A stretch of DNA of 64,000 nt from an uncultured Verrucomicrobiae bacterium (lineage in GTDB: Bacteria > Verrucomicrobiota > Verrucomicrobiia > Limisphaerales > JAHDYP01): the NCBI GenBank assembly GCA_963765535.1, contig CAVXWU010000004.1:593202-657201 (forward strand), in the 5' to 3' direction. The notes beneath the pieces were generated by a model that was not told the DNA's origin, made no database searches, and saw only the letters and a program-made list of their open reading frames with translations. Of the stretch, positions 16,623 to 34,043 are shown one piece after another. A program made the translations under genes and the position numbers. Each line of letters starts with the position of its first letter. Positions within the stretch are counted from its first letter, which is position 1.

Positions 16623-16660
16623 CGCTTGGGCCACAACCGTTCGTCTGCGAAATCAGACCA

Positions 16661-16691: not shown

Positions 16692-16875
16692 ACGGGGCCC
16701 GCCGCGCCGTAGCGAAGCGCAGGCGGGTGAGGTGAGGGGGAAACACCGTCGCTCGAGATTTGAATCAAGCCGGGCAACACCGTGTTCATGCCGCTCCTGC
16801 AGGCGTATGCGTGTCCGCAACGTTTTGTAGTGCGGCCCGCTGAGCGCAGTGTCGACGGCGTGGCAACATCCCAGG

Positions 16876-16963
16876 GTCGCATCGCGTCGTCCGCGAAGCG
16901 GAGCGCGGTTGTGTCCCGTCTGCGGGACCAGCCGCAGCAACGTCCGACGGTCGCATCACGGTT
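16876..16963 (+). repeat. Left-flank module of composite repeat, copy 1
   Basis: ..GGGTCGCATCGCGTCGTCCGCGAAGCGGAGCGCGGTTGTGTCCCGTCTGCGGGACCAGCCGCAGCAACGTCCGACGGTCGCATCACGGTT. It aligns with 32875..32978 of copy 2 apart from one ~14-nt deletion, a 1-nt indel and a few substitutions. Confidence 0.8.
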
Positions 16964-17685
16964 CGAGGACGAGGGAGGAGGACGAGGGACGAGCACGAGG
17001 GACGAGGACGAGCACGAGGACGAGCACGAGGACGAGCACGAGGGACGAGCACGAGGGACGAGCACGAGGGACGAGCACGAGGGACGAGCACGAGGGACGA
17101 GCACGAGGGACGAGCACGAGGGACGAGCACGAGGGACGAGCACGAGGGACGAGCACGAGGGACGAGCACGAGGGACGAGCACGAGGGACGAGCACGAGGG
17201 ACGAGCACGAGGGACGAGCACGAGGGACGAGCACGAGGGACGAGCACGAGGGACGAGCACGAGGGACGAGCACGAGGGACGAGCACGAGGGACGAGCACG
17301 AGGGACGAGGGACGAGGGACGAGCACGAGGGACGAGGACGAGCACGAGGGACGAGGACGAGCACGAGGGACGAGGACGAGCACGAGGGACGAGGACGAGC
17401 ACGAGGGACGAGGACGAGCACGAGGGACGAGGACGAGCACGAGGGACGAGGACGAGGCACGAGGGACGAGGACGAGCACGAGGACGAGCACGAGGGACGA
17501 GGACGAGCACGAGGGACGAGGACGAGCACGAGGGACGAGGACGAGCACGAGGGACGAGGACGAGCACGAGGGACGAGCACGAGGGACGAGCACGAGGGAC
17601 GAGCACGAGGGACGAGCACGAGGGACAGAGCACGAGGGACGAGCACGAGCACGAGGGACGAGGACGAGGACGAGGACGCACGCGC
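16964..17685 (+). repeat. T-free tandem array 1 (13-bp and 19-bp units built from GAGCAC / GAGGGAC / GAGGAC)
   Basis: The last T before the array is at 16963 and the next T is at 17686. Every base between them on the top strand is G, A or C. GGG recurs every 13 nt from 17042 to 17302, which gives 21 units. A 19-bp periodicity follows from 17321. Confidence 0.95.
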
Positions 17686-17692
17686 TGTTCGT

Positions 17693-17898
17693 GTGCGCGT
17701 AGCCGCAGTAATGTACCCCCCGTCACCTGAGATGGGCGCTTTCCTCTTTCGGGGAATTATTCTGCCCAATAATCATTCTGCCACTCCCCCGCCAACCCGG
17801 ATCGCTCACCCCGAAGTGGCAGGATGATGTCGGCAGAATGATGGGAAGCCTACCGTCTCGTTGCCTGGGAACATTCGACCGGCTCGAACCATTCGCGC
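17693..17898 (+). repeat. Right-flank module of composite repeat, copy 1 (contains four-box ATTCTGCC hairpin 17757..17841)
   Basis: GTGCGCGTAGCCGCAGTAATGTACCCCC...GGGCGCTTTCC.CTTTCGGGGAATTATTCTGCCCAATAATCATTCTGCCACTC...GAAGTGGCAGGATGAT.GTCGGCAGAATGAT.GGAAGCCTACCGTCTCGT.GCCTGGGAACATTCGA.CGGCTCG.ACCATTCGCG. It aligns with 33729..33933 at roughly nine positions in ten by eye. Confidence 0.85.
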
Positions 17899-17971
17899 GT
17901 TGCAGCAACAGCCGACGGTCGCTGCGCGTCGGGTTGCGACATTCTTGAATGCCCCGAACCGCGTGCGCGCG

Positions 17972-18028
17972 TTGCTGCGACTGGCGATTCGGGTCGCGCT
18001 CCAGCCAAGCTGCACGTCGTCCGCGTGC
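17972..18028 (+). repeat. Extra partial copy of the left-flank start segment at the 3' end of copy 1
   Basis: TTGCTGCGACTGGCGATTCGGGTCGCGCTCCAGCCAAGCTGCACGTCGTCCGCGTGC matches 32856..32912 (GCTGCTGCGACTGGCGCTTCGGGTCGCGCTCCAGCCAAGCTGCGCGTCGTCCGCGTGC) with 3 mismatches. Confidence 0.8.
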
Positions 18029-18040
18029 CGCGAGCGGGTA

Positions 18041-18068
18041 ACAGAAAAGGCCCGGCGGATGCCGGGCC
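18041..18068 (-). terminator. Intrinsic terminator of the RRM gene
   Basis: On the minus strand, the stem GGCCCGGC-AUCC-GCCGGGCC (18068..18049) is followed by UUUUCUGU (18048..18041). It lies 27 nt downstream of the RRM gene stop. Confidence 0.65.
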
Positions 18069-18094
18069 TGGGTCAAACTTAGATTATCGGGAAA

Positions 18095-18403
18095 TCAATA
18101 GCGTCCACGGTTACCGTATTCACGGCGACCGCCGCCGCCACCACCCGAACGATCTTCGCGTGGCTTGGCAATGTTGACCGTCAATTCGCGGCCGTCGACA
18201 GATTGGCCGCTGAGGGCGCGGATGGCGGCCTGGGCTTCGTCGGCCGTGCTCATGGTGACGAAACCGAACCCGCGGGGGCGGCCGGTCTCGCGATCCATCA
18301 TCAAATTGACTTCGGAGACGACACCGTGAGCGGAGAAGGCATCCCGCAGTTGGGTTTCAGTGGTATTGAAGGAAAGGTTTCCCACAAATAATTTATTACT
18401 CAT
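18095..18403 (-). CDS. Single-RRM RNA-binding protein with Gly/Arg-rich tail
   Basis: Track ORF of 102 aa. RNP-2 is LFVGNL and RNP-1 is RGFGFVTM. The tail is REDRSGGGGGGRREYGNRGRY. This is the architecture of bacterial Rbp-type glycine-rich RNA-binding proteins. Confidence 0.9.
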   Translation of the reverse strand: MSNKLFVGNLSFNTTETQLRDAFSAHGVVSEVNLMMDRETGRPRGFGFVTMSTADEAQAAIRALSGQSVDGRELTVNIAKPREDRSGGGGGGRREYGNRGRY

Positions 18404-18629
18404 ACTTGATGTTTTCTGCCCAGACGAACCGGTTCTTTTGCCAGACTGTTCCCGAACATCGGGTCTAAAATCATCACTGAACTGAGTTCAACTGAGGATT
18501 CACCATGCCTTGAAAGAGACAAGCTATCGCGCAGGACGCGGGACAAACTGACAGGCCGGAGTGGGAAAGCAAGCCTTATCTTTGCCATTGGGAGTCTGCG
18601 ATTCATTGACATGCCCTTTCTCCGGGAGG

Positions 18630-21600
18630 ATGTTGCGACGCATGATTTCCCGGCGGTTGTTGCAATCTTTTCGTTCAGGTTGTCTCCTGGTTTCTCTCTT
18701 CCTCGCCGTTGGAGCGCTCCAGGGACAAGTCATTCTCAGTGAATTCATGGCGGACAATGAATCCACGCTGGCCGATGAGGATGGAACCTATTCCGATTGG
18801 ATTGAGGTTTACAACACCGGGGCCAGCGCGGTGGACCTCGCCGGCTGGGCGTTGACCGGAGATCCATTGCATCAGGCGCTATGGGGGTTTCCTTCCACGA
18901 ACTTGCCGCCCAAGGGTTTCCTTGTCGTTTTTGCATCAGGAAAAAACCGCGCGGTGGCGGGCGCGCCGCTGCACACCGATTTCAGTCTTAAGGCGAGCGG
19001 AGAATACCTGGCGCTGCTCGAACCGGGAGGAGGCGTCGCCACGGAATTTGCGCCGGCGTTTCCGTCACAATATCCCGACGTCTCTTACGGTGTGGTCCAG
19101 GAAGTCACCACGAATGCATTCGTGCCCTCCGGCGCGCCCGTGCGGGTTTGGATCCCCTCGAGCGCACAGGGTTCGACCTGGACGCAGCCCGCGTTTAACG
19201 ATGCCGGCTGGACAAGCGGATCGACCGGCGTGGGGTACGAGATCGCCGTTCCCGGTTTTGCCGCATTATGCTACGTGGCCAACGTAGGGGTCTGCAGCCT
19301 GGGCGCGGCGGAAGGCGTGGTCAACAATCCCGGGCAACAGTTCTCAGTCGCGGCCGAGAACGCCGCAGTGTTGAATTACCTGAACACGGCTGACTCGGCG
19401 CATTACGGCAACGACCGCGCGTTTCCGGGGCTGCCGATCGGTCCCGATCGCGATAATTTCGTGCTCGAGGCCACGGCCACGATCACCATCCCCGCGGCGG
19501 GCAACTGGACTTTCGGCGTCAACAGCGACGACGGTTTCTCGCTGGAGATCGGAAGCTTTTACATGTCCTACCCGGACCCGCGCGGTCCCGCGGACACCCT
19601 CCAAACGTTCAATTTTCCGGCGGCGGGCGACTATCCGCTGCGCCTGCTGTTCTACGAATGCGGCGGGGGTTCGGAAGTTGAATTGTTCGCCGCGGCCGGG
19701 AGTTACGCGGCATGGGACCCGACCCATTTTCATCTGGTGGGTGACATGGCGAATGGAGGATTGTCCGTTTTGTCTCCCGTGATCTCCGGTGGTGAGGGGA
19801 CGGCGAGTTATCGGCCGTTGCTCGCCACAGATGTGGAGTCCCCGATGCTCGGGGTGAACGCCTCGGCCTATCTGCGGCTACCCTTTACCGTGGCGGATCC
19901 GGCGGCGCTCGAGTCGCTCACGTTGCGGATGCGATACGACGATGGTTTTGTCGCCTATCTCAACGGACAGGAAGTTGCCCGTCGCAACGCGCCGGCCGCT
20001 CCTTTATGGAACTCGGCGGCAACTGCGGCTCATCCCAACGATCAGGCGCTGATTTTCGAGGATTTCAATCTGTCCGACCGGCTCAACCTGCTTCAGCCGG
20101 GAAACAACCTGCTGGCGATCCAGGGACTCAACCGTTCGGCCGCCGACACTGATTTCCTGATCATGCCGGAGCTCCTGGAGCTCCAAATCACCGACGCCGA
20201 CACGCAGTACTTCGCCAAAGGATCGCCGGGGGCGCCTAATGGCGCCGGATTTGTGGCCTTTGTGGCGGATACGAAATTCGACCATGACCGCGGTTTTTAC
20301 GACGCTCCTTTTCAACTCTCGATCACGACGGCCACGCCGGGAGCGACCATCGTCTACACGACCGACGGTTCGGTGCCGTCGCTGACCCATGGCACGGTCG
20401 TCAGCGGTCCGATACCGATCAGCGCCACCACCGTCATTCGGGCGTCGGCGTTCAAGGCGGGTTTCGCACCATCCGGAGTGGATACCCAAACCTATCTCTT
20501 CACCGCCGATATCATTCATCAGTCACCCACGGGCCAGCCCCCCCCCGGTTGGCCGGCAAGTTGGGGCGCGAACGTGGTGGATTACGGCATGGACCCGGAT
20601 GTGGTGAACGCTCCGGCCTATGCCGGCGAAATCGAGGACGACCTGAAATCGATTCCGACGTTTTCGATCGTGACCGAGTCCGGCAACCTGTTCGATCCGG
20701 CTACGGGCATTTACGCCAACGCCAGCCAGGATGGCCGGGACTGGGAACGTCCGGCCTCGGTCGAGCTGATTTATCCAGACGGCACTCCCGGTTTTCAAGT
20801 CAATGCCGGCCTTCGGATTCGGGGCGGTTACAGCCGGAGTTCAAACAATCCGAAACACGCCTTTCGACTTTTTTTCCGCCAGGAATACGGGGCGTCGAAG
20901 TTGGATTATCCGATGTTTGAGCATCAGGGCGGCACGGAAACCTTCGACGCCTTCGACTTGCGAACATTTCAGAATTACTCCTGGAGTTTCGAAGGCGATT
21001 ACCGGTTCATCGGCCTGCGCGACCAGTTCTCGCGCGATGCGCAATTGGCCCTCGGCCAACCCGGAGAACGGGGCGACTTCTATCACCTTTACATCAACGG
21101 GCAGTATTGGGGGATCTTCAACACCGCCGAGCGGCCGGAGGCCTCTTTCGGCGCCAGTTATTTCGGAGGGGACAAAGATGATTACGATGTCATCAAGGTG
21201 GATACCGGCGCGGGCTACACCATCTTCGCGACCGATGGGAACATGGATGCCTGGACGCGTCTTTGGCAGGCCGCTACCAATGGGTTCGCCACGGACGCCG
21301 CATATTTTAAAGTGCAGGGGAGAAACACCGACGGCACGCCTAACCCGGCGTTCGAGAATCTACTGGATGTGGACAACCTGATCGACTACATGCTGGTGAT
21401 CTTTTTCACGGGCAACATCGACGCGCCGATCTCGGCCTTCATCGGCAACACGAATCCGAACAACATGTACGCCGTTCGGAATCGCACAGGGCTCTATGGC
21501 GGCTTTCGATTCCTGGCGCACGACTCCGAACACACTCTCCTGCACGAATCGTCGCTTGGGAACAACGACGAACTCCATCGCGATCGCACGGGGCCGTTTG

Positions 21601-24600
21601 CCGCGGGCGATCCCACGCAACAAGGAGCGGCGGGCGCACTGGCCCGGAGCAATCCGCAGTATTTCTTTACCCGGTTGACCGCCAACGCCGAGTTTCGCCT
21701 GCGCGTGGCCGATCACATTCGCAAGGCGTTCTTCGATGGCGGCGTGTTGAGCCCCGAAGGTTGCCGTGCCCTTTTCACGGCGCGCAGCAATGAAGTCTAC
21801 CATGCGATCGCGACCGAGTCGGCCCGCTGGGGCGACTCCAAACGTTCCACCCCCCGCACCCGCAATGAAGACTGGGCTCTCGAAATGAGCCGGGTCTATG
21901 GAGATTATTTCAACCAACGGACCGGGATTGTTCTCGGGCAATTAACAGCCAAAGGACTCTACCCGAACGTCGACGCCCCATCCTTGAATCCCAATGGCGG
22001 CCTCGTGCCGCCCGGATCCACCGTGACGATGGCTGCGCCGGCCGGCACGATCTACTACACCCTCGATGGATCGGATCCGCGGCTGCGCGGTGGCGGGGTG
22101 GCTGCGACCGCGCAGATCTACTCCAGCCCATTGACCTTGTCCCAGAGCGTTCGGATCAAGGCCCGCGCGCTGAGTGGCGGCACCTGGAGCGCGCTGACCG
22201 ACGCGACGATTTACCTCAACCGGGATTTCACAGACCTCCTGGTTACGGAGATCATGTACCATCCTCAGGCGGCGGCGACGTTTGACAGCGAGGCTTTGGA
22301 GTTCCTCGAATTGAAGAACGTCGCGAGCACGAACCTCGAACTCAGCGGTGTGCATTTCACCGATGGGATCCAGTACTCCTTCCCACTCGGCATGCTCCTT
22401 GGTCCGGGCCAGTTCGCGGTGCTGGTTAGTGATCCGGTCGCCTTTGCCAGCCGATACCCCGGGGTGCGCGTCGATGGCGTGTTCACCAATCACCTCTCCA
22501 ACAGCGGCGAACGAGTGATCCTGGCCCACGCCAACGATGTTCCGATCTTTTCCGTGGCATACGAGGCCGCCCTTCCCTGGCCGGTCACGGCCGATGGAAC
22601 GGGATTCTCGCTCGTGCCCCTGAATCCGAATCTTAATCCGGACCCGAGTAGTGCATTGAATTGGCGGAGCAGCGCCTCGATCGGCGGGTCGCCGGGCGCG
22701 GACGATCCGCCCTCGTTCCTTCCCCGGATCCTGGTGAACGAAGCGCTTACGCACACGGACCTGCCGCAACTGGATTCCATCGAGCTCTACAATCCTAATC
22801 TGACGAATGTGGACGTCGGTCATTGGTTCCTGACCGACCAGCGGAATCTCCCCGGCAAGTATGCATTTCCTTCGCCCACCATCATCCCGGCCGGTGGCTT
22901 TTTGGTTCTGACCGAAAACGACTGGAACCCCGATCCGCTTTCGACCAACGGTTTCCGGCTCAATTCTCATGGCGAAGAAATCTATCTCTACTCAGCCGAC
23001 GCCATCGGCCAACTTACCGGTTACAGCGACGGGTTCGCCTTCGGTGCCGCGCAGAACGGGGTGACTTTCGGGCGTTACCTCAATAGCGTGGGCGAAATCC
23101 TCTATCCCGCGCAGACCGCCAACACCCTGGGTGCGCCCAACGCCGGGCCGCGGGTGGGACCGGTAGTCATCAACGAAATCCGTTATCATCCCGCGCCGGG
23201 AGACGAGGAGTTTGTGGAGCTGAAAAACATCACCAACGCGCCCGTGAAGCTTTACGATCCCAATTTTCCCACCAACACGTGGCGCGTCGAAGGATTGGGC
23301 TACCGATTCCCGGAGAACGTCGAGATATCCGCCAATGGACTGCTCCTGCTCGTGGCGGCCGATCCGGCAACGTTTCGGACGAAGTATGGTGTCCCGGCGG
23401 CCGTTCCCATTCTGGGCCCGGTCCCGGGCACGTTGCAGGACAGCGGTGAGTCTCTGGCCCTCCAACGACCCGATACGCCGGACCTGGACACCAATACCGG
23501 CGCGATCTTCATTCCGCAGATCGACGTGGACGTCGTGCGATACAATGACAAGTCCCCCTGGCCCACCAACGCCGATGGCTTCGGTCCGTCCCTCGAACGG
23601 CTCGACGCCCGCGCCTATGGGAACGACCCGGTCAACTGGCGGGCCAGTCCGGGTCCTGCGTCACCCGGCCAAGAAAACACGGGCAACCGTCTGCCGCTGG
23701 TGGAGGCCGGCGCGGATGTGTCACTGACCGCCGCGACGTTTCCGTTGAACGTTCCGCTGGCCGGTTCCGCCCAGGACGACGGTCTCCCGAATCCGCCGGG
23801 CGCATTGACATTGACCTGGAGCCAGGACACCGGCCCGGGCCTCGTCGCGTTCAGCAATGTACACTTGTCGAATCCTTCGGCGAGCTTCCCTGGCGTGGGC
23901 ACGTATGGCCTGCGGCTTACGGCCGACGACGGTGCCCTGCAGGTAAGCGACGTGCTCAGCGTGACGATTGACCGGCTCCCTTCAAATGTGCCGATTGTGA
24001 GCAAAGGCTCGGCCTGGAAATACCTCGACAACGGATCGGACCAGGGATCGGCCTGGACATCGCCTACATTCAACGATGCAAGCTGGCCATCCGGGTCGGC
24101 CCCGCTCGGATACGGAGACGCCGACGGTGTGTTGCCCGTTACGCTGGTGGGCTATGGTCCCGACGCCAACAACAAGTACCTCACCACCTATTTCCGCCAG
24201 ACGTTCAATGTGTCTAATCCGGCCGATGTCACGGCCCTGACACTGAGCGTGCAGCGGGATGACGGAGTTGTGGTTTATCTCAATGGCGCTGCCGTCTTCG
24301 TCGACAACATGCCGGCCGGACCGATCGGATACCTGACCTCCGCCGTCACCGCCGTGGGCGGCGCGGATGAAACAACATTCTATATCCAGTCCATTGATCC
24401 GGCCCTGCTGCGCCAGGGGGCGAATGTCGTGGCCGCTGAAATCCATCAGGCCGGCGGGAACAGCAGCGATATCATCTTCGATCTCGAACTTATCGGACTG
24501 GGATATTCCGCTAACCAGGCGCCCACAGCCAATGCGGGCCCGGACCAGGCCGTGACCCTCCCTGCCACGGCAGAGCTTCACGGTACCGCGAGTGATGATG

Positions 24601-25049: not shown

Positions 25050-25172
25050 CATGCGAATCCCGCGGTCCACTCATTTGATGGCCTGGCGAAGACCGGGAAT
25101 TTGATCATCATTCATCGGGTCTTTTGGCCCCCCAACCTATTAAATCTGGAGTATGCCAATGCCATCCCTCAT

Positions 25173-28100
25173 ATGCCCATTTTGACTGCAGTCCGATCGC
25201 GCTTCGTCTTGCTGGTTCTGATGCTCTTTGTCTTGGTCTCGGTCCGCGCCCAAAACGTTCTGGTGACCGAGATCATGGTCCATCCACCGGGCACCAATCT
25301 CCTCGAACAGTGGTTTGAACTCCAAAATCGCGGCCCGGCCGCTGTGGATCTTTCCGGTTGGCGAGTGACTCGCGGGGTCGACTATCTCTTTCCCAGCAAT
25401 ACTGTCCTCGCCGCGGGCGGCTACCTCGTGGTGGCCGCGGACCGGCAGACCTTCAGCGGGTTGCACCCGACGGTGACGAATTTCGTTGGCGGCTGGGAGA
25501 GCACGATCGGTCATGCGCTCGAGCTCACCGACCGATCAAACCGCGTGGTGCATGCCGTCGAGTTCTACGACCAGGGGGATTGGGCGGTCCGGCAAATGGG
25601 TCCGCCGCATTTCAACCACACCGGCTGGGAATGGCATGCCGAATTCGATGGACTGGGAGCCTCGCTCGAATTGATCAACCCGGCCTTGCCCGATGGCTAC
25701 GCCCACAATTGGGGTAGCAGCACGGTGATGGGCGGCACCCCCGGACGCCCCAACTCCATCGCCTCCTCGAACAACGCACCGTTAATCGCCGATGTGCATC
25801 ATCGTCCCGTGATCCCACAACCGAGCGATCCCGTCACCGTGACCGCCCGGGTGGTGGACGAGTTGTCCGTCGGCCTCGTGGTTTCTTTGCATTGGCGTGT
25901 GGATGGCGCGGCCAGTTTCAATGTCATCGCCATGGCGGATGACGGCGCGCACGGCGACGGCACGTCGGGCGACGGTCTGTTTGGCGCCATTCTCCCGGCG
26001 CAACCGGATCTGACCGTGGTCGAGTTTTATCTGCAGGCGCAAGACCAGGGAGGCAACCTGAGGACTTACCCCGTCTTCATCCCCCCGACCAATTCGACGC
26101 GCACGGCCAATCTGCTTTACCAGGTGGACAGCGGCGCTTACGCGGGCACCCAGCCGGTCTATCGGATCATCATGCGCGGAGTGGAGCGGGCAGAGCTCTT
26201 CGACCTCGGCCGCCAGTTCCCGGACGCCGACAGCGACGCCCAGATGAACGCGACCTGGATTTCCTCAGACGGCGTGGTGAGTGGCGGGTCGACCACCCAG
26301 ATCCGTTACAACTGCGGCGTGCGCAACCGCGGGCACGGCACGCGCGTCGCTAATCCGAACAACTACCACGTGAACATCCCGTCCGATCGCCTTTGGAAAG
26401 GCCAGGCCGGAATTAACCTCAACGCCCACTATGCTTATTCGCAGGTCCTGGGCAGCGCCGTCTTTCGCCGGCTGGGCGTGCCGATGGCCGATTCCCGCGC
26501 CGTGCAAGTGCGCGTCAATGGGATCGATCTCATGGCTTCGGTCGGCGGCGACTCCTTCGGTTCCTACGCCGCCAACGAACAATACAACAAGGATTTCGTC
26601 CAACGCTCCTGGCCGATCGATCCCGGCGGCAATGCGTATCGCGGTATCCGGGGCCCAACCGAGACCGGACCGCAAATCGAAGCGGATCTCACCTGGCACG
26701 GGCCGGACTTCTTCGTCAGCGGGTCCTACACGAACGCCTATTTCAAACAAAACAACTTTGTCCAAAACGATTACTCCGATCTCCTGGAACTCCTCGGTGT
26801 GCTCAACGAGATCCCCGGTTATTCGAGCTCGGCCGCCTATGTGACCGACGTCAACCGCGTGATCGATGTCGAGGCCTGGATGCGGTACATGGCCATCAAC
26901 ACTCTCCTGGCCAACGGCGAAACCTGCCTGGCCAATGGGGTGGGAGACGACTACGCCCTCTATCGCGGGACGCTCGACACCCGCTTTGAAGTGCTCCCTT
27001 ACGATCTGGATACCGTGATGGGGCGGGGCCTGACCCCCACCAGCCCGCGCAACGGACTCTGGCGCATGACCAACTTGCCGGTCATGGACCGGTTCATGAA
27101 GACGCCCGAGTTCGCCCCTGTCTATTACCGCCAACTCAAGACGCTCGCCGACACGGCATTTTCCACGGCGCAGATGGATCCGCTGCTTGATCAACTGTTT
27201 CAGGGCTACGTGCCGCAGGAGACGATTGACACGATGAAGGCCTTCAATGCGAGCCATGTGGCTTACGTGCTCTCCCAGATCCCAAACACTCTGGTCGTCA
27301 GCAACAACCTCCCGATTCTCAACGGCTATCCCCACACCACTGTTCCCATCATTGCCTTGACCGGCGCCGCCAATGCCTTGAACACCCGCACAGTCCTCGT
27401 GGGCGGTGGCGCGGCCACCTATTCCGCCTGGGAGGGTACGTGGTCGATCAACGGAATCGTTCTATATCCCGGCATCAATCGACTCCTGGTTCAGGCCCTC
27501 GATGCCGACGGTCAAGAAGTGGGCCGCGCCACCGATGACGTGTGGTATGACGACGGTGCTGCCCAGTCCGCGGGCGGGACTCTCCAAACGGACACCACCT
27601 GGACGGCAGCGGCCGGGCCGTTCGACATCACCTCCACCCTCACCGTCGCCGCCGGCGTCACGCTCACACTCGAACCCGGCCTTACAGTTTATCTCGGGCC
27701 GGGCGTCAACCTCGTGGTCGCCAATGGCGGACGGCTCCTCGCCGAGGGCACTGAGACCGCGCCCATTCGATTCACCAGGCTCCCCGGCGCCACCACCGCG
27801 TGGGGCGGAATCACGATCAATGGGGGGATCGGTTCGCCCGAGACCCGCATTACCCACGCCCATCTGGAGTTCAACGGTTCGACGGCCATCCACTCCTCGG
27901 GCGGCACAGTATTCCTGGACCATCTCACGTTTGGTTCGACCGACCACCAATACATTTCACTCGACGGTTCCTCTTTTGTGGTCAGCCATAGTGATTTCCC
28001 AACCCCCACGGCGGGTTTTGAACTTCTCCATGGCACCGGCGGGATCAAGGCCGGCGGATACGGCATCTTTTACCGGAACTTTGTTGGTGCCCCCAACGGC

Positions 28101-31100
28101 TACAACGACGCGATCGACTTCACCGGGGGCAATCGCCCGGGACAACCTCTCGTCCATTTCCTCGAAAACGTGTTTGTCGGGAGCGGCGACGATCTGCTCG
28201 ATTTGGACGGCACGGACGCCTGGGTGGAAGGCAATATCTTCATGCATTGCCACAAGAATGGATCGCCGGATTCGTCCAGTGCCGTGAGCGGCGGCGACGA
28301 CGGCAACGCGACTTCCGAGATCACCATCGTGGGCAACTTGTTTTATGATTGCGATCACGCGGCCACGGCCAAGCAGGGCAATTTTTATACGCTGCTCAAC
28401 AACACGATCGTCCATCAAATACACGAGGGCGGCACCGACACGGCCGGAGCGCTCATGAATTTTGCGGATGCCGGCACCACCGAAGGCGCGGGGGCCTATC
28501 TCGAAGGCAATATCGTGGTGGATGCCGAGGCCCTCGTCCGCGACCAGAACGCCGCTATTGTCACGTTTACCAATAACCTCCTGCCGTTCCCATGGTCCGG
28601 ACCCGGGGGGGCCAATTCCACCGCCGATCCGCGACTGAAGTATATTCCGCAACTCGCGGAAACCACCCAGTTCAGCAGTTGGGAAGAAGCTCAGGTGCTG
28701 CGCGATTGGTTCAGCCTGATGCCCGGGTCGCCTGCCATCGGCACGGGACCGAATCATCTGGATAAAGGTGGAGTTGTGCCGATGGGCGCCTCGGTCAGTG
28801 GCGAACCGTCCGGCACGAACAACCTGACCAGCGCCACACTCGAGGTAGGCTTTAACCGCGCGGGCAGCGGAATTCCCGTCGCCGGGTTCCCCGAGGGTTC
28901 CGGCTATGTTGCCTACCGCTACCGTCTGGACGGGGCCGCGTGGAGTACCGAACGGGACATTCATATGCCTATCAGTCTCGTCAATCTCTCCAGCGGCCCG
29001 CATCGCGTCGAAGTCTCAGGTAAACGCGACACGGGCCCTTTCCAGGACGACCCGGTGTTTGGCGATGCGGCATTAGTCAGCACTTCGCGAACCTGGACAG
29101 TCGATCCCGGCGCCGTTCCTTCCAATCTCCCAACCGTGCGCTTGAACGAAGTGCTGGCGTCGAATCGATCCGTGCTCACCAATGGCGCCGCGACGCCCGA
29201 CATCGTCGAGCTTTTCAATTTCGGCAGCGCATCGGTCGACCTGTCCGGAATGGGGCTCACCGATAACGCGGATTTGCCCTACAAATTCACCTTCGCCGCA
29301 GGCACTCAGCTCGCCGGCGGCGCGTTCCTGGTTCTATATGGCGACAACGATTTCACCGCGCCCGGCGTTCACCTCGGATTCTCGATTAAAGCCTCGGGCG
29401 ATAATGTCTTGCTCCACGCCGCCGCGGCGAAAGGCGGTCAACCCCTGGACCAAGTCGTGTTCGGCTTGCAGATCGCCGATTATTCCATCGGACGTGTGCC
29501 CGACGGCACCTGGACGCTCTGCGAACCCACCTTCGGTTCTCCCAACGTGACCGCCGGCCTCGGGCGCTACTGGGACCTGAAGATCAATGAGTGGCTCGCC
29601 GACGCCCAGTTCGCGGCCAACAACGATTTTGTCGAACTCTACAACCCGGAACCTCAGCCGGTCCCGCTCGGTGGATTATACCTGTCCGACGCGGCCGGCG
29701 CGCCCGACCGGCATCCGATCGCACCGCTGAGCTTCATCTCCGGCGCCGGCTACACCCCGTTCATTGCTGATAGCCAGCCGAACCAGGGCGCGGACCACTT
29801 GAATTTCAAGCTGTCGCCGGACGTGGGGCTACTGCTCCTCTCGGCGCCCGATCTGACTTTGATTGACGCCATTAACTACGGCCCGCAACAGACCGATGTG
29901 TCGCAGGGTCGCAGCCCGGACGGAAGTGAAACGCTTGCGGATTTCACGCAACCTTCCGACGGTGGACCCAATCCGGGCCTGGGCGGGGTCATCTCGGTGA
30001 CCAATGTCACTCAGACCATCGAGCCGCTGCTCGAGGTCACAACATCCGCGTGGCGATTTGATTCTTCGGGGATCGACTATGGGACGGGCTGGCGTCTCCC
30101 GGGTTTCGACGACTCCGGTTGGAACAGTGGTTTCGGCCTGTTCGGCCGCGAAACCACGCCGCAGGTCTATCCTTATCCCTTCCAGACCGCCATCCCGGCG
30201 CCGAGCCAGTCGGGCGGGCACATCACGGTATACTACCGAACTCACTTTTCCTGGACCGAAGCCCTGGCCGAGTTCCAATTGATCGCCACGAATTACGTCG
30301 ATGACGGGGCGGTCTTTTACCTCAACGGGGTCGAGGTGGGCCGGCTCCGCGTCTCAGCCGACCCGGTGCTTTATGCGAGCACGGCCTCCAACCAGGACAA
30401 CGAGGGCGCGCCCGAGCGATTAGTCTTTCCCACGAACAGCCTCGTTCGAGGTGACAACGTAATTGGAGCCGAAGTCCACCAGGCCAACAGCGGGAGCAGT
30501 GACGACGTGTTCGGCGTGTCGCTCGCGGCGATCCAATTCACCACAAACATCGTGACCCAGACCTTTGGAGTGCCGGTGCTGCTCAATGAGGTGCTTGCTC
30601 GGAACCAGACTCTTACGAATCACCTGGGCCATACTGCCGACTACGTCGAGCTGTTTAATCCTTCCACCAACACCGTGGACCTCTCCGGGCTGAGCCTGAG
30701 CACCGACCCCAACGATTCCCGCCGCTGGGTCTTCCCCGCTAATCGCAGTCTCGCGCCTTCGGCCTACACGGTGATCTACCTGGACGACGCCGCGCCCGCC
30801 TCACCCACCAACACCGGCTTTGCCCTGGGTGCCAACGGCGACGTGCTTTATTTCTTTAACCGTCCGCTGGGCGGCGGAGCTCTGGTCGATTCCATCCGGT
30901 TTGGCCGGCAAACGCCGGACTTCTCGATCGGGCGCACACCCGATGCCGCCGGTCATTGGACACTCAATCTTCCCACTCCCGGCGGTCCGAACAGCTCGGC
31001 TGGCCTGGCGAACATTTCCGCCCTCCGGATCAATGAATGGATGGCCGATCCCTCGAAGGGCAGCGATTGGCTCGAGCTCGCGAATTCCGCCGGCCAACCC

Positions 31101-32822
31101 GTCGCGCTTGATGGCCTGTTCCTGACCGATGATCTGTCGGATCCGAACAAGTCACCGATTCCACCCCTCAGTTTCATCGGGACTGGCGGCGACGCCTGGG
31201 CGGTGTTCATTGCCGATAGCAGGCCCGGCGACGGAGCGGATCATGTGGACTTCTCGTTGAGCAAATCCGGCGAAGCCCTCGGGTTGTTCTCGCCCGCGGG
31301 AGTTATGATCGACGGCGTGACCTTTGGTCCCCAGCCCCTGGATGTGGCGCAGGGGCGCCTGCCTGACGGTTTCCCGACGATCGTGAATTTCGCCAGCACC
31401 GCCTCGCCCGGAACATCCAATTTTCTGCCGTTGCCCGGCGTGGTCATCAACGAGGTGCTGACGCATACCGACCCGCCGCTGGAGGACGCCGTGGAGTTCT
31501 TCAACCTCACTCCCGTCGGCGTCAACGTGGGAGGCTGGTACCTCAGCAACTCAAGGGATGACTTCAAGAAATACCGGATCCCCGATGGAACCATCCTCCC
31601 CGCCAACGCCTTCCTCGTCCTCTACGAAGGCCAGTTCAATGCCGGCGCAACCCCATTCACGTTCAATTCCGCCCACGGCAATCGGGCCATCCTCTCCCAG
31701 GCCGACGCCCAGGGCAACCTCACCGGCTACCGCGCCGAGATGGAGTTCGGCGCCGCCGCTAATGGCGTCTCATTCGGTCGCATCCCTACCAGTGTCGGCT
31801 TCGACTTCACCGCCGTGAGCGCGACTTCCTTCGGGGCCGATCAGGCCGTCACTGTGGATGAGTTTCGCATGGGCGCCGGTCTACCCAACACCGAAGCCAA
31901 GGTCGGTCCCGTGGTGCTCAGCGAAATGCTCTACTATTCGGCCACCGGCGGCCTGGAAAACGACGAAGACGAGTTCATCGAACTGGAGAACATCAGCGGC
32001 GCCCCGGTGCGGCTCTATGATCCCGGTTATCCCACGAACACCTGGAGTCTGCGGAGCGCCGTCGACTTCGTATTTCCGAGCAACGTCATGCTCGATGCCG
32101 GAGGCCGGCTGTTGGTCGTCGGTTTTCCACCCACCGATCCCCAACTGCTGGCACAGTTCCGCGCCAGGTTCAGTGTGCCCGCCGCTGTTCCTGTTTTCGG
32201 CCCATGGAGCGGACATCTCGCCAACGACAGCGACAGCGTGGAACTCTACCGCCCCGATACCGTGCAGTTGCCGCCTCATCCGGATGCCGGTTTCGTGCCC
32301 CAGATCCTGGTGGACAAGGCGGACTATGCCGCGGTTGCACCGTGGCCCGCTGCCGCGGCCGGTGGCGGCAATTCCCTGCAGCGCCTGAACCTTTCCCGCT
32401 ACGGCAATGACCCGGCCAATTGGTCGGCCGCCATACCTACCGCGGGCCGAGCGAATATGGCCGATCCTACCGACACCGATCATGACGGTCTGCCCGACGT
32501 GTGGGAACTCACCTACTTCGGCACCCTTGATCGCGACGGCACCGACGACCTGGATGGCGATGGCATCACCGACTTCGGAGAGTATTTGGCCGGCACCTCG
32601 CCAATCGGGGATTTCCGTTTCCTCTCCGTATCCCTGGGGACGGTGGTTTCCTTGGAGTTCGTGTCTCAGTTCGGCCGGCCCACAACCGTCGAATACCTCG
32701 ACAACCTGGGCGGCCTATGGCAAACGCTCACCAACGTGCCCGCGCCGGCGCAAACGACCCGAATCATGGTGACCGACGCCTACCCGACCGGGACGCGCTT
32801 TTATCGTCTGGTCGCCCCGTGA
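25173..32822 (+). CDS. Giant secreted LTD / CotH / beta-helix protein, paralogue of the upstream gene (2549 aa)
   Basis: Track ORF 25101..32822 starts at a TTG. I moved the start to ATG 25173 (MPILTAVRSRFVLLVLMLFVLVSVRAQN). LTD modules include VLVTEIMVHPP, VRLNEVLASNRS, LKINEWLADAQ, VLLNEVLARNQ, LRINEWMADPS, VVINEVLTHTD and VVLSEMLYYSA. The CotH core is YNCGVRNRGHGTRVANPNNYHVNIPSD..INLNAHYAYSQVLGSAVFRRLGVP. A parallel beta-helix region is GVTLTLEPGLTVYLGPGVNLVVANGGRLLAEGT... Acidic Ca-binding-type repeats are DTDHDGLPDVWE..DLDGDGITDFGE. The C-terminus ends TRFYRLVAP. Confidence 0.85.
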   Translation: MPILTAVRSRFVLLVLMLFVLVSVRAQNVLVTEIMVHPPGTNLLEQWFELQNRGPAAVDLSGWRVTRGVDYLFPSNTVLAAGGYLVVAADRQTFSGLHPTVTNFVGGWESTIGHALELTDRSNRVVHAVEFYDQGDWAVRQMGPPHFNHTGWEWHAEFDGLGASLELINPALPDGYAHNWGSSTVMGGTPGRPNSIASSNNAPLIADVHHRPVIPQPSDPVTVTARVVDELSVGLVVSLHWRVDGAASFNVIAMADDGAHGDGTSGDGLFGAILPAQPDLTVVEFYLQAQDQGGNLRTYPVFIPPTNSTRTANLLYQVDSGAYAGTQPVYRIIMRGVERAELFDLGRQFPDADSDAQMNATWISSDGVVSGGSTTQIRYNCGVRNRGHGTRVANPNNYHVNIPSDRLWKGQAGINLNAHYAYSQVLGSAVFRRLGVPMADSRAVQVRVNGIDLMASVGGDSFGSYAANEQYNKDFVQRSWPIDPGGNAYRGIRGPTETGPQIEADLTWHGPDFFVSGSYTNAYFKQNNFVQNDYSDLLELLGVLNEIPGYSSSAAYVTDVNRVIDVEAWMRYMAINTLLANGETCLANGVGDDYALYRGTLDTRFEVLPYDLDTVMGRGLTPTSPRNGLWRMTNLPVMDRFMKTPEFAPVYYRQLKTLADTAFSTAQMDPLLDQLFQGYVPQETIDTMKAFNASHVAYVLSQIPNTLVVSNNLPILNGYPHTTVPIIALTGAANALNTRTVLVGGGAATYSAWEGTWSINGIVLYPGINRLLVQALDADGQEVGRATDDVWYDDGAAQSAGGTLQTDTTWTAAAGPFDITSTLTVAAGVTLTLEPGLTVYLGPGVNLVVANGGRLLAEGTETAPIRFTRLPGATTAWGGITINGGIGSPETRITHAHLEFNGSTAIHSSGGTVFLDHLTFGSTDHQYISLDGSSFVVSHSDFPTPTAGFELLHGTGGIKAGGYGIFYRNFVGAPNGYNDAIDFTGGNRPGQPLVHFLENVFVGSGDDLLDLDGTDAWVEGNIFMHCHKNGSPDSSSAVSGGDDGNATSEITIVGNLFYDCDHAATAKQGNFYTLLNNTIVHQIHEGGTDTAGALMNFADAGTTEGAGAYLEGNIVVDAEALVRDQNAAIVTFTNNLLPFPWSGPGGANSTADPRLKYIPQLAETTQFSSWEEAQVLRDWFSLMPGSPAIGTGPNHLDKGGVVPMGASVSGEPSGTNNLTSATLEVGFNRAGSGIPVAGFPEGSGYVAYRYRLDGAAWSTERDIHMPISLVNLSSGPHRVEVSGKRDTGPFQDDPVFGDAALVSTSRTWTVDPGAVPSNLPTVRLNEVLASNRSVLTNGAATPDIVELFNFGSASVDLSGMGLTDNADLPYKFTFAAGTQLAGGAFLVLYGDNDFTAPGVHLGFSIKASGDNVLLHAAAAKGGQPLDQVVFGLQIADYSIGRVPDGTWTLCEPTFGSPNVTAGLGRYWDLKINEWLADAQFAANNDFVELYNPEPQPVPLGGLYLSDAAGAPDRHPIAPLSFISGAGYTPFIADSQPNQGADHLNFKLSPDVGLLLLSAPDLTLIDAINYGPQQTDVSQGRSPDGSETLADFTQPSDGGPNPGLGGVISVTNVTQTIEPLLEVTTSAWRFDSSGIDYGTGWRLPGFDDSGWNSGFGLFGRETTPQVYPYPFQTAIPAPSQSGGHITVYYRTHFSWTEALAEFQLIATNYVDDGAVFYLNGVEVGRLRVSADPVLYASTASNQDNEGAPERLVFPTNSLVRGDNVIGAEVHQANSGSSDDVFGVSLAAIQFTTNIVTQTFGVPVLLNEVLARNQTLTNHLGHTADYVELFNPSTNTVDLSGLSLSTDPNDSRRWVFPANRSLAPSAYTVIYLDDAAPASPTNTGFALGANGDVLYFFNRPLGGGALVDSIRFGRQTPDFSIGRTPDAAGHWTLNLPTPGGPNSSAGLANISALRINEWMADPSKGSDWLELANSAGQPVALDGLFLTDDLSDPNKSPIPPLSFIGTGGDAWAVFIADSRPGDGADHVDFSLSKSGEALGLFSPAGVMIDGVTFGPQPLDVAQGRLPDGFPTIVNFASTASPGTSNFLPLPGVVINEVLTHTDPPLEDAVEFFNLTPVGVNVGGWYLSNSRDDFKKYRIPDGTILPANAFLVLYEGQFNAGATPFTFNSAHGNRAILSQADAQGNLTGYRAEMEFGAAANGVSFGRIPTSVGFDFTAVSATSFGADQAVTVDEFRMGAGLPNTEAKVGPVVLSEMLYYSATGGLENDEDEFIELENISGAPVRLYDPGYPTNTWSLRSAVDFVFPSNVMLDAGGRLLVVGFPPTDPQLLAQFRARFSVPAAVPVFGPWSGHLANDSDSVELYRPDTVQLPPHPDAGFVPQILVDKADYAAVAPWPAAAAGGGNSLQRLNLSRYGNDPANWSAAIPTAGRANMADPTDTDHDGLPDVWELTYFGTLDRDGTDDLDGDGITDFGEYLAGTSPIGDFRFLSVSLGTVVSLEFVSQFGRPTTVEYLDNLGGLWQTLTNVPAPAQTTRIMVTDAYPTGTRFYRLVAP

Positions 32823-32855
32823 CCGGCGAGAAACACTGATTCAAACCCTTCGCAC

Positions 32856-32978
32856 GCTGCTGCGACTGGCGCTTCGGGTCGCGCTCCAGCCAAGCTGCGC
32901 GTCGTCCGCGTGCGGAGCGCGGCTGTGTTCCGTCTGCGGGACCAGCCGCAGCAACACCCCGACGGTCGCATCACGGTT
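32856..32978 (+). repeat. Left-flank module of composite repeat, copy 2
   Basis: It starts 34 nt after the stop of the 2549-aa gene. See copy 1 (16876..16963 and 17972..18028) for the aligned sequence. Confidence 0.85.
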
Positions 32979-33721
32979 CGAGGACGAGCACGAGGAGGAG
33001 GACGAGCACGAGGAGGAGGACGAGCACGAGGAGGAGGACGAGCACGAGGAGGAGGACGAGCACGAGGAGGAGGACGAGCACGAGGAGGAGGACGAGCACG
33101 AGGAGGAGGACGAGCACGAGGAGGAGGACGAGCACGAGGAGGAGGACGAGCACGAGGAGGAGGACGAGCACGAGGAGGAGGACGAGCACGAGGAGGAGGA
33201 CGAGCACGAGGAGGAGGACGAGCACGAGGAGGAGGACGAGCACGAGGAGGAGGACGAGCACGAGGAGGAGGACGAGCACGAGGAGGAGGACGAGCACGAG
33301 GAGGAGGACGAGCACGAGGAGGAGGACGAGCACGAGGAGGAGGACGAGCACGAGGAGGAGGACGAGCACGAGGAGGAGGACGAGCACGAGGAGGAGGACG
33401 AGCACGAGGAGGAGGACGAGCACGAGGAGGAGAACGAGCACGAGGAGGAGAACGAGCACGAGGAGGAGAACGAGCACGAGGAGGAGGACGAGCACGAGGA
33501 GGAGGACGAGCACGAGGAGGAGAACGAGCACGAGGAGGAGGACGAGCACGAGGAGGAGGACGAGCACGAGGAGGAGAACGAGCACGAGGAGGAGAACGAG
33601 CACGAGGAGGAGAACGAGCACGAGGAGGAGGACGAGCACGAGGAGGAGAACGAGCACGAGGAGGAGAACGAGCACGAGGAGGAGAACGAGCACGAGGAGG
33701 AGGACGAGCACGAGGAGGAGC
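32979..33721 (+). repeat. T-free tandem array 2: 41 x 18-bp units GACGAGCACGAGGAGGAG (10 units with AAC instead of GAC)
   Basis: The last T before the array is at 32978 and the next T is at 33722. Units start at 32983 + 18k for k = 0..40. Units 0-24 begin GAC. The AAC variants are units 25, 26, 27, 30, 33, 34, 35, 37, 38 and 39 (hand count). Confidence 0.95.
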
Positions 33722-33728
33722 TCTTCGA

Positions 33729-33933
33729 GTGCGCGTAGCCGCAGTAATGTACCCCCGTCGCCCGACATGGGCGCTTTCCGCTTTCGGGGAATTATTCTGC
33801 CCAATAATCATTCTGCCACTCACCCGCTAACCCGGATCGCTCACCCCGAAGTGGCAGGATGATTGTCGGCAGAATGATTGGAAGCCTACCGTCTCGTCGC
33901 CTGGGAACATTCGAGCGGCTCGGACCATTCGCG
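33729..33933 (+). repeat. Right-flank module of composite repeat, copy 2 (four-box hairpin 33792..33877)
   Basis: It aligns with 17693..17898. A degenerate copy of the left-flank start follows at 33934..33975 (GCTGCTGCGGCTGGCGCTTCGCGCACAGTCGCGCTCC). Confidence 0.85.
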
Positions 33934-34043
33934 TGCTGCTGCGGCTGGCGCTTCGCGCACAGTCGCGCTCCGGCAATCGCCGGAGCAGCTTGACAAACGG
34001 CAGCAGCAGCAGAGCATAGCCTCGAGTTTATCTGCTCCGTCCT

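Follow-up and report, generated by a model that had tools for sequence, protein, structure and literature searches.

The two composite repeats that flank a block of three genes in the window (the whole 64-kb stretch of DNA analysed) are on balance best regarded as paralogous copies of a lineage-specific, non-coding foldback repeat family of the REP/BIME, ERIC or MITE kind. Two same-strand composites about 16 kb apart, each framing a T-free array with conserved flanks, had been reported in a preliminary description, and their coordinates and anatomy were confirmed to the base, the T-free runs extending exactly over 16964-17685 and 32979-33721, with the lengths claimed there (722 and 743 nt). 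The direct repeats of the flanks pair at offsets of 16,014-16,036 nt, the left flanks being 95% identical over 44 nt and the right flanks matching in segments of 37 nt (95%), 112 nt (95%) and 79 nt (91%). Conservation of the flanks, also proposed earlier, is thus borne out at 90-95% identity with two 1-nt indels in the right-flank alignment, and so is a further partial copy of the start of the left flank, 17966-18037 pairing with 32851-32922 at 90%. This segment (X) proved to be, in addition, the inverted-repeat partner of the left arm (L), a foldback that the preliminary description had not seen, as it had missed the array-less version in a relative and the sharing of the right-flank hairpin core with dispersed repeats in other phyla.

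Exact 26-mers of both flanks occurred only at these two sites of the window, with 0 matches in 100 shuffles. Profiles of L, X and the right flank (R) matched the two composite copies in the 64-kb window and, across about 110 kb of DNA from relatives, a single short copy, with no other L, X or R match in either. The earlier statement that no named RNA family fits was upheld by Rfam scans, which gave 0 matches at gathering score in the window and chance-level ones only at E<=10 over both copies. BLAST against plasmid and phage records, with the right flank of copy 1 and X1 as query, gave no match, and a literature search with sequence strings returned unrelated primers only.

Anatomy of the two copies

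The arms, arrays and right flanks of the two copies are given on the + strand. Copy 1 lies downstream of ppdK (13851-16622, +; an ORF 94-95% identical to pyruvate, phosphate dikinases, with Pfam PPDK_N/PEP-utilizers matches), the 3' end of which is 342 nt from array 1. It is preceded by x0 (16876-16897, GGTCGCATCGCGTCGTCCGCGAAG), a degenerate X-arm remnant just 5' of L1 that was recognised by alignment and gave a weak nhmmer match at 16860-16885. The left arm L1 (16897-16963; nhmmer L profile E=8e-22; direct repeat D10, 95%; inverted repeat I1 with 17970-17984) includes a small hairpin, GTCCCG-TCTG-CGGGAC, at 16913-16928 and the segment CCAGCCGCAGCAACG at 16928-16942. Array 1 (16964-17685; TRF and direct repeats) is followed by the right flank R1 (17686-17905), which opens with the L-like GTAGCCGCAG and is supported by the nhmmer R profile (E=3e-81), direct repeats D6, D7 and D12 and the R1/R2 alignment. 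A second, truncated L-type arm, L* (17893-17922, GCAGCAACAGCCGACGGTCGC; 0 mismatches to the L pattern; inverted repeat I2 with 17971-17987), forms an array-less foldback adjoining copy 1 together with the right arm X1 (17962-18037; D8; nhmmer X profile E=1e-15; I1, I2), which is the inverted partner of both L1 and L*. X1, a direct copy of X2 at 90%, is followed by about 12 nt of another truncated L start and abutted by the intrinsic terminator (18048-18069, -) of an RRM_1 RNA-binding protein gene (18095-18403, -; PF00076, E=3.6e-23) that is convergent with ppdK.

Beyond the RRM gene come two giant exoprotein genes, of the LTD/CotH/PA14 type (18561-25049, +) and the LTD/CotH type (25101-32822, +), the stop codon of the second being 28 nt ahead of X2. 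In copy 2, X2 (32848-32913; D8; alignment; nhmmer E=2.4e-15), an X arm 5' of L2 and a direct copy of X1, leads into the left arm L2 (32911-32979; nhmmer E=5.8e-22; inverted repeats I1 and I5 with 33923-33972), array 2 (32979-33721), the right flank R2 (33722-33939) and the right arm x3 (33923-33988), the inverted partner of L2 in blocks of 26 nt (81%) and 15 nt (93%). A gene for a prepilin-type N-terminal methylation/DUF1559 protein (34044-34820, +) lies 3' of this copy.

Since inverted arms, L against X, bound both copies, each copy is a foldback element. The arms pair as 16928-16942 with 17970-17984 (15 nt, 93%) in copy 1, and as 32913-32927 with 33958-33972 (15 nt, 93%) and 32942-32967 with 33923-33948 (26 nt, 81%) in copy 2; the L profile finds X and the X profile finds L in reverse (nhmmer). 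The left arm reads ..GGAGCGCGGCTGTG..CCAGCCGCAGCAAC.. and the right arm ..GTTGCTGCGRCTGG..CACAGTCGCGCTCC.., and the basic unit would be a pair of such inverted arms of roughly 45-55 nt each. With the order x0|L1-array-R1|L*-spacer-X1|L-start at the first site and X2|L2-array-R2-x3 at the second, L and X arms alternate at both sites in the patchwork manner of REP/BIME clusters.

The nearest relative found (locus L053), with a ppdK 95% identical, carries a 125-nt element (13855-13979 of its locus) that has L and X and is without array and right flank. Its arms of 47 nt are 72% identical and 31 nt apart, it sits about 1.1 kb 3' of ppdK, flanked by convergent genes, and it is predicted to fold into one long hairpin (z = -2.5). 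Compared with x3 and the arm of L053, X1 and X2 each lack 5 nt; among the X variants, x3 comes nearest to the L053 arm. Because the derived 5-nt deletion is shared and the identity is 90%, X1 and X2 are copies of each other, and the pair arose most likely when an X-L-array-R unit was duplicated locally or inserted.

T-free arrays

Array 1 has periods of 13 and 19 nt (TRF), its commonest unit, CGAGCACGAGGGA (13 nt), being accompanied by 19-nt and 12-nt variants in blocks. Array 2 comprises 41 units of 18 nt, CGAGCACGAGGAGGAGGA (TRF, 41.2 copies, 98% matches), with a G>A variant (..GAGAA) in 10 units of its distal part. Both begin with ..ACGGTTCGAGGA and have the T-free core CGAGCACGAG in common; they differ in unit length, and each carries variants in blocks. 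Because the flanks are conserved while the unit differs, the arrays turn over faster than their frame, in agreement with the preliminary description. Part of the space between the arms may be described as a purine-rich minisatellite grown out of the sequence after ..ACGGTTCGAG and reshaped continually by replication slippage or unequal exchange, with the unit length diverging and the flanks remaining about 93% alike; slippage is the turnover mechanism that we infer.

The strand asymmetry is extreme, with 0 T in more than 720 nt and about 80% purine, the antisense strand having 47-48% C, 17-22% G and almost no A; the longest other T-free run in the window is 48 nt. The T-free state is nevertheless less remarkable than it looks, since it follows from amplification of the common T-free core, and the chance that a unit of 13-18 nt lacks T is a few percent by arithmetic from a GC content of 0.61. 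Whichever strand is transcribed, the array RNA is predicted to have hardly any structure (-11 to -35 kcal/mol per 150 nt).

It is very unlikely that the arrays are assembly artefacts or that their length or unit structure was mis-assembled. Arrays of 720-740 nt with 12-19-nt units are longer than short reads, a single G in a G-run separates the 12- and 13-nt variants of array 1, a typical long-read error class, and the contigs of two relatives end no more than 98 and 265 nt past the ppdK stop. However, the source contig of 1.13 Mb is taken as a sign of long reads or of a high-quality assembly, the variant patterns are ordered and block-wise with unique flanks on both sides, the same junctions are found at two independent sites, and 12-nt units share identical contexts with 13-nt ones, which speaks against an error of purely systematic kind.

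The right-flank hairpin and its double motif

The remaining space between the arms would belong to a second, nested palindromic module, R, which is predicted to fold into a strong hairpin (z = -3.0 and -5.5 in the two copies) with a stem that carries a 28-nt double motif, ATTCTGCC-N8-ATTCTGCC, its two sites 16 nt apart. The core hairpin of R1 (17756-17842; inverted repeats I3, I4 and I6, predicted fold and motif matches) is built as ATTATTCTGCC-CAATA-ATCATTCTGCCACT, a 29-nt loop and AGTGGCAGGATGAT-GTC-GGCAGAATGAT, with the double motif at 17759-17782; the corresponding positions in R2 are 33790-33879 and 33794-33817.

Dispersed hairpin repeats in genomes of KSB1 and Lentisphaerales contain the same double motif and lie nearly always on the 3' side of genes, and the 28-nt duplex with two ATTCTGCC sites was met in Verrucomicrobiota, Lentisphaerales, KSB1 and low-GC contigs. 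Motif hairpins elsewhere fell in divergent intergenic regions in one of the 32 cases that could be scored by crude ORF calling, and REPs have the same bias of placement 3' of genes (PMC3733652). The ATTCTGCC arm comes first in the window hairpin and second in the KSB1-type repeats, and because of this difference in arm order the relation may be one of a shared binding site rather than of shared descent. The 32 KSB1-type hairpins yielded no covariation, their sequences being too alike. Among 52 other motif loci, the motif was found together with a base-free array at one only (L002). ORFs between neighbouring motif copies at two loci (L013, L033) look like housekeeping genes from their translations, as read rather than scanned for families. 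Rfam gave 0 matches at gathering score in 10 motif loci, and in viral contigs the two motif scans and the scan for the array core found 0 matches; four matches to the L pattern in those contigs all lay in coding sequence and were set aside as chance. To our knowledge none of the look-alikes considered for the ATTCTGCC motif (sigma-54, Fur, IHF, LexA, dif, DUS) fits. This hairpin core shared across phyla is the more interesting loose end.

Coding capacity and possible RNA function

The elements are non-coding. An encoded repetitive protein, either acidic, (EDEHEE)n, or RGG-like, (RGRARGGG)n, is an exceedingly improbable alternative: all six frames of the arrays are open, which follows from the composition itself, since a T-free strand with an A-free complement has no stop codons. 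The 18-nt unit of array 2, with A at every third base, and a GTG at 32910 that opens the RGG-like frame would suit a coding array, but from the upstream stop to the array of copy 2 the acidic frame offers neither ATG nor GTG nor TTG as a start. In copy 1, moreover, the 13- and 19-nt units shift the frame at each unit, the 13-nt units rotating through all frames, and the peptide is unrelated; the 1-nt indels in both flanks place homologous starts and ends in different frames, and both giant genes end with a homologous ..TRFYR[IL]V.P motif ahead of the element.

If the elements have a function, it is probably that of REP, BIME and Correia repeats, the hairpins ending, stabilising or processing the transcripts of ppdK and giant gene 2; any role in transcript ends is inferred and would amount at most to that of a 3'-end hairpin or insulator. 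No terminator-like site was found on the + strand between the stop of ppdK or of giant gene 2 and the R module. The R hairpin is without a following T-run, only a weak 6-bp hairpin and then TTATTCTG being predicted, and such weak terminator features count against a role in transcript ends. Transcribed in antisense, the array would be an unstructured, C-rich, G-poor and A-free stretch of the composition on which Rho loads, and Rho loading would block antisense read-through, for instance from the convergent RRM gene.

It is tempting to go further and to regard the composite as a functional RNA module rather than as selfish or neutral DNA, a proposal that we consider unlikely. It would be either a one-way Rho-dependent insulator or a protein or 30S landing pad, the latter as a long 3'-UTR or ncRNA in which the array, being U-free, unstructured and rich in purines (with many SD-like GGA and GAGG sequences), is capped by the hairpins of L and R and serves as landing pad or sponge for the adjacent RRM protein, for CsrA- or Hfq-type proteins or for 30S subunits. 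Both arrays are in sense orientation directly 3' of + strand genes and lack an earlier terminator-like site, the array RNA is predicted to be unstructured and R to form its strong hairpin, the RRM gene adjoins, and both arrays are still T-free despite their diverged units. On the other hand, no Rfam family matches, the two near-identical copies are too few for covariation, the differences between R1 and R2 are by reading not compensatory, and neither the unit sequence nor the periodicity of the putative binding motif is conserved between the copies. The nearest relative lacks array and R at its homologous element, the shared orientation may stem from duplication alone, and because the arrays have undergone few independent mutational events, their lack of T says little in favour of selection.

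Nature of the element

The reading as a non-coding foldback family agrees with placement by gene 3' ends, copy 1 lying between the convergent ppdK and RRM genes, copy 2 after giant gene 2 and the L053 element between convergent genes; with three sites only, a bias is not demonstrated. Terminal inverted repeats, as in MITEs, are present in copy 1, copy 2 and, over 47 nt at 72%, L053. Against a REP- or MITE-like assignment stands the small number of copies in the DNA examined, such families being defined by many dispersed ones (for REPs, tens to hundreds in each genome), and against a dispersed family the clustering of the window's only two copies 16 kb from each other, where random dispersal predicts otherwise. 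A target-site duplication was not seen by reading at copy 2, and the sole candidate at L053, an offset GCATC or CAT, fails to convince.

The search for a cognate transposase or RAYT gave no transposase-like Pfam match in 25 window ORFs, of which 6 match no family, and an autonomous IS with the same ends was not found in the window, the loci of relatives or the viral contigs. As to the short (20-40 bp), imperfect palindromes of REPs, which bear GTAG or CGTC at one end, the arms here are 45-55 nt long and pair with a distant partner rather than with themselves; where R starts, a GTAG (17700-17703 and 33735-33738) stands ahead of CCGCAG, and CGTC lies within L1. An integron attC site was considered and rejected, as L (CAGCAAC) and X (GTTGCTG) misfit the RYYYAAC/GTTRRRY cores; the 25 window ORFs scanned contained no match to an integrase family.

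The gene block between the copies

The two copies, or the 85-nt duplication of X plus L start (17962-18049 and 32848-32925), might be thought to bound a 14.8-kb cassette, made up of the RRM gene and the two giant exoprotein genes, that enters or leaves by homologous or transposase-mediated recombination. This idea, which goes back to the deletable or circularising cassette of the preliminary description, is decidedly improbable, and nothing found shows that the copies move the 15-kb block between them; recombination between any direct repeats is possible in principle and is not evidence. In its favour, X1 and X2 are 90% identical over 72 nt with their common derived 5-nt deletion, they abut the block closely (at the RRM terminator on one side and 28 nt past the stop of giant gene 2 on the other), and the only two copies in 64 kb bracket it. 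The gene order 3' of ppdK and 5' of the 938-aa gene differs in every relative examined, and L053 has another bracketed block, of 1.7 kb with an HNH gene between direct heptamer arrays, which is absent from the window.

The window, however, contains no recombinase or transposase (25 large ORFs scanned, 6 without Pfam match) and no tRNA, and the GC content of the block equals that of its surroundings. Neither an empty site nor another location of the block was found in the relatives examined, the synteny search with relatives of ppdK, the giant-gene C-terminus and the 938-aa gene having recovered no array and no empty site. The copies are 5-10% diverged, so that any such event was not recent, and REP-like elements collect independently at gene 3' ends, a habit that would likewise put them on both sides of a gene block.

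Implications

If the reading as a foldback family is right, a verrucomicrobial family joins the catalogue of REP/MITE-like intergenic hairpin repeats, and such elements can host large, fast-evolving and strand-asymmetric minisatellites. For annotation, every one of the six frames of the arrays will yield spurious ORFs to gene callers; for assembly quality control, the contigs of two relatives end soon after ppdK, with the repeat as a possible cause only; for strain typing, the arrays are potential markers. If one factor recognises the ATTCTGCC-N8-ATTCTGCC core across phyla, it would be a new one, and if the core was spread by an element, the host range of that element would be unusually broad. 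A more far-reaching proposal, which we hold to be quite unlikely, combines these threads into a functional module built on a cross-phylum recognition element. The ATTCTGCC duplex would be bound or processed by a conserved factor, or else by a mobilising enzyme that has been transferred broadly. The U-free array would serve as a tunable landing pad through which the genes on either side are insulated or regulated, and X1 and X2 would be the means by which the RRM and giant-exoprotein block comes and goes as a unit.

Comparison with known systems

Rho prefers C-rich, G-poor, unstructured RNA, and BIMEs can attenuate transcription in a Rho-dependent manner. The antisense strand of the arrays resembles such sites, in composition only, over more than 700 nt that are C-rich, G-poor and unstructured, whereas natural rut sites measure about 70-80 nt and are not tandemly repetitive. 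With bacterial minisatellites or VNTRs the arrays share head-to-tail units of 12-19 nt, which vary in length and number between the paralogous copies compared here (rather than between strains), and variants in blocks as slippage or unequal exchange predicts; they differ in being fixed within a conserved foldback frame that was itself duplicated, and in their extreme strand asymmetry.

ERIC (IRU) and Correia (NEMIS) elements are foldback, MITE-like repeats of 100-160 bp, to which the 125-nt array-less form of L053 is similar in its long inverted arms and single hairpin. Larger ERIC variants arise by insertions at internal sites, and the long duplexes into which Correia and ERIC transcripts fold undergo processing and affect the stability of neighbouring mRNA. 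The present sequences show no similarity to these families and lack a TA or any other clear target duplication, and internal tandem arrays of such a size are not known as a feature of either.

From REPs the present elements differ in their longer arms (45-55 nt as against 20-40 nt), in the two or three copies in the DNA examined, in the lack of a RAYT gene in it and, compared with REP dimers, in a spacer made of a 0.7-kb minisatellite and a 220-nt module instead of 20-100 nt. The likeness to REPs, BIMEs and REPINs consists in non-coding palindromes just 3' of genes, between co-directional or convergent genes, in an orientation that alternates within the cluster (X|L...X|L) with variable spacers, and in hairpins thought to act on transcript ends (for the REP properties, PMC3733652). 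It extends to a GTAG, which stands at the start of R and, in the KSB1-type repeat, beside a small GCGGC-N4-GCCGC hairpin.

Structure of the composite repeats

The preliminary description claimed two composite units on the same strand, and this was borne out by reading both sites and by the repeat tools; the finding is real and was well described. Copy 1 lies at about 16876-18037 and copy 2 at about 32848-33988. A direct-repeat search of the window paired the flanks at an offset of 16,014-16,036 nt, with 95% identity over 44 nt between the left flanks and 95% over 37 nt, 95% over 112 nt and 91% over 79 nt between the right flanks, where the alignment also contains the two 1-nt indels originally noted. 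The segment 17966-18037 matches 32851-32922 with 90% identity. Exact 26-mers of either flank have no further site in the window and no match in any of 100 shuffles.

Each copy is a foldback element. The right arm (X) had been described as repeating part of the left arm (L); the direct likeness exists, but this account is incomplete, since inverted repeats and profiles showed that X and L are also reverse-complement partners, the L profile finding X and the X profile finding L on the opposite strand. The inverted pairs are 32913-32927 with 33958-33972 (93%) and 32942-32967 with 33923-33948 (81%) in copy 2, and 16928-16942 with 17970-17984 (93%) in copy 1. Both sites are patchworks of arms. With R denoting the right-flank module, x0, X1, X2 and x3 the right arms and L* a truncated left arm, the order is x0 / L1-array1-R1 / L*-61 nt-X1 / about 12 nt of further L at site 1, and X2 / L2-array2-R2-x3 at site 2. 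X1 and X2 are 90% identical, and in the alignment each is 5 nt shorter than x3, which indicates that they are copies of each other. The start of R, GTAGCCGCAG, resembles CCAGCCGCAG of L.

The T-free arrays

The arrays are, as first reported, exact T-free runs of 722 nt (16964-17685) and 743 nt (32979-33721), the longest in the window, the third-longest being 48 nt; that they are an assembly artefact is quite unlikely. Array 1, which consists of 13-, 19- and 12-nt units in blocks, was assigned periods of 13 and 19 nt by TRF, and array 2 was resolved into 41 copies of an 18-nt unit (98% matches), a G>A variant being present in 10 of the 41 units, in the distal part. The common start point ..ACGGTTCGAGGA and the common core CGAGCACGAG imply that both arrays come from one ancestral array, reshaped since, presumably by slippage. 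Their unit lengths differ while the flanks have diverged by just 5-10%, in agreement with the earlier view that the arrays turn over faster than their frame. The lack of T can be attributed to amplification of a T-free core; the independent variants are few and also T-free, which is weak evidence for selection at best.

A coding reading of the arrays was rejected on start codons, frame rotation and flank indels, and it is even more improbable than an artefact. The six open frames follow from the absence of T (of A on the other strand) alone. In copy 2 the acidic (EDEHEE)n frame lacks an ATG, GTG or TTG from the upstream stop to the array, the 13-nt unit of copy 1 rotates through all frames, and the 1-nt indels place homologous flank sequences in different frames in the two copies. 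Both giant LTD/CotH exoprotein genes are closed by a homologous ..TRFYR[IL]V.P ahead of the element.

An array-less relative

L053, the contig whose ppdK comes closest to that of the window, carries a 125-nt element about 1.1 kb downstream of that gene, with convergent genes on either side. Its arms of 47 nt, with 31 nt between them, fold into a single hairpin (z = -2.5); the left arm is 87.5% identical to L1 over 40 nt and the right arm 83% identical to x3. Neither array nor R is present, so that the inverted-arm frame is the basic unit of the repeat family, array and R having been either gained in the lineage of the window or lost in L053. Profile searches found no further copies elsewhere in the window or in some 110 kb of DNA of relatives.

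That the repeat is a functional RNA, a sponge or an insulator module we consider doubtful. Its orientation would fit, as would the nearly unstructured array RNA (-11 to -35 kcal/mol per 150 nt on both strands), but the unit is not conserved, the array is missing in the nearest relative and no family is matched. The Rfam search returned 0 matches at gathering score and chance-level ones only at E<=10, and the earlier statement that the flanks are not recognisable as a named RNA family was upheld. Nothing similar to R+X was found among plasmid and phage records.

The R hairpin and the double motif

R folds as a long interrupted hairpin, the 5' arm of which contains the double motif ATTCTGCC-N8-ATTCTGCC, located in the window at 17759-17782 and 33794-33817. 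Elsewhere the double motif was found in L001 (7293-7482), L002 (5328-5579) and the loci L003-L052. The exact 24-mer is present in one KSB1 MAG and one Lentisphaerales MAG, and the slightly degenerate pattern in 50 metagenome contigs (GC 0.40-0.58), which come mostly from a single sample; the pattern, of 24-28 nt, reads AAT[TC]ATTCTGCC[CAG]AATAATCATTCTGCC. No viral contig carries the double motif, no Rfam family matches it, and no mention of it was found in the literature.

In most of the 50 contigs the motif forms the 3' arm of a hairpin of about 60 nt that is near-perfect, GGCAGAATAATGGTTCGGCAGAATGATT-AAAAA-ATTATTCTGCCAAATAATCATTCTGCC, usually lies 3' of genes, and is followed by TTTT and by a small hairpin, GCGGC-N4-GCCGC, with ..GCTA(C/G) at its end. 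The copies of the 60-nt hairpin are near-identical and show no covariation. Compared with it, the R of the window has the arm order reversed and a loop of 29 nt. In the remaining contigs the motif lacks an inverted partner or is otherwise arranged. Loci where it stands without such a partner are L002, L039 (three tandem copies) and L044 (four direct copies). By crude ORF calling, 1 of 32 scorable motif copies lies between divergent genes, against about 8 expected at random (P about 0.001), and the same bias against divergent intergenic regions is known for REPs (PMC3733652).

Motif repeats and base-free arrays are not linked, save in L002, where other short arrays adjoin the motif. The intergenic stack of this Lentisphaerales contig (5128-5582) comprises the array (GGGTATCGGGTAAAC)x6, the hairpin GTCCCGAC..GTCGGGAC and a 122-nt unit present about 2.4 times. 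Each unit is made of (CCTGCTC)n and the ATTCTGCC motif, which the two complete copies carry in double form and the third in single form; the stack is another mosaic of short arrays and motif. In a related verrucomicrobium (L055, 8152-8193, intergenic) there are three direct copies of CATGATTCTGTCC with a period of 15 nt, a variant of the periodic ATTCTGCC motif. The KSB1-type contig L011 contains, at 12063-13022, a repeat of period 71 nt that looks like a CRISPR array, with variable spacers and a constant stretch, GTGATCACGAACCCCAAAGCACGAAGTGCATTGAAAC, some 37 nt long.

Gene context

The source is a verrucomicrobium. The metagenomic proteins nearest to its ppdK share 94-95% identity with it, and the named matches are Verrucomicrobiae/Verrucomicrobiota MAGs. 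Copy 1 is enclosed by the convergent ppdK (+) and RRM_1 (-) genes, the latter with an intrinsic terminator of its own; copy 2 begins 28 nt past the point where the second giant LTD/CotH gene stops and is followed by a prepilin-type/DUF1559 gene. Upstream of PIG-L and ppdK (2797-12756), the three consecutive large PAS/GAF/HisKA/HATPase/receiver genes of 859, 1629 and 798 aa are ordinary hybrid sensor kinases.

If the repeat has any effect, it is probably on transcript ends. No terminator-like site occurs on the + strand from the stop of ppdK, or from that of the second giant gene, to R. The sense strand of the array is about 80% purine; the antisense strand, with 47-48% C, 17-22% G and almost no A, resembles a Rho loading site in composition, and read-through from the convergent RRM gene would stop there.

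Forty nucleotides past the ppdK stop lies a strong GC palindrome without a T-run, CCCTCTCC..GGGGAGAGGG (16660-16692); relatives have a classical terminator of hairpin and T-run at the same place (L053, about 12810-12850). Two contigs of relatives, L064 (12860-12985) and L054 (end 12861), break off no more than 98 and 265 nt past the ppdK stop; the last part of L064 is a purine-rich repeat, about 52 nt long, that includes GGTTCGAG. In this group, repeats may be common downstream of ppdK.

A 1.7-kb insertion in L053 (8148-9836), between PIG-L and ppdK, contains an HNH gene of 136 aa together with three small ORFs and lies between two direct arrays of a heptamer, (AATCCCC)x3 and (AATCC[C/T]C)x5. 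The heptamer equals the cyanobacterial STRR1 repeat. The window has the same flanks at 13631-13851, where the site is uninterrupted.

It had also been proposed that the two copies bound a mobile block, namely the 14.8 kb with the RRM gene and both giant genes. This L053 block within direct (AATCCCC)n arrays, missing from the window, offers a parallel; the pair are the sole copies in 64 kb, and the tight abutment of X1 and X2 on the block adds a little. Against this, no recombinase was found (0 of 25 large window ORFs match integrase or transposase families, 6 of the 25 being without any Pfam family), GC content is even throughout the block, and no empty site was recovered in any relative examined, since gene order differs on both sides in every one of them. 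Mobility of the block is improbable. The window contains no tRNA genes.

Relation to known repeats

The explanation we favour, by a modest degree, is a lineage-specific foldback repeat of the REP/BIME or ERIC/MITE kind, probably duplicated locally, with a nested palindromic module and a minisatellite presumably driven by slippage inside it. REP clusters (BIMEs) likewise place arms of alternating orientation at the 3' ends of genes, as seen at both sites of the window, and the element is best classed as a new form of this known type of intergenic repeat.
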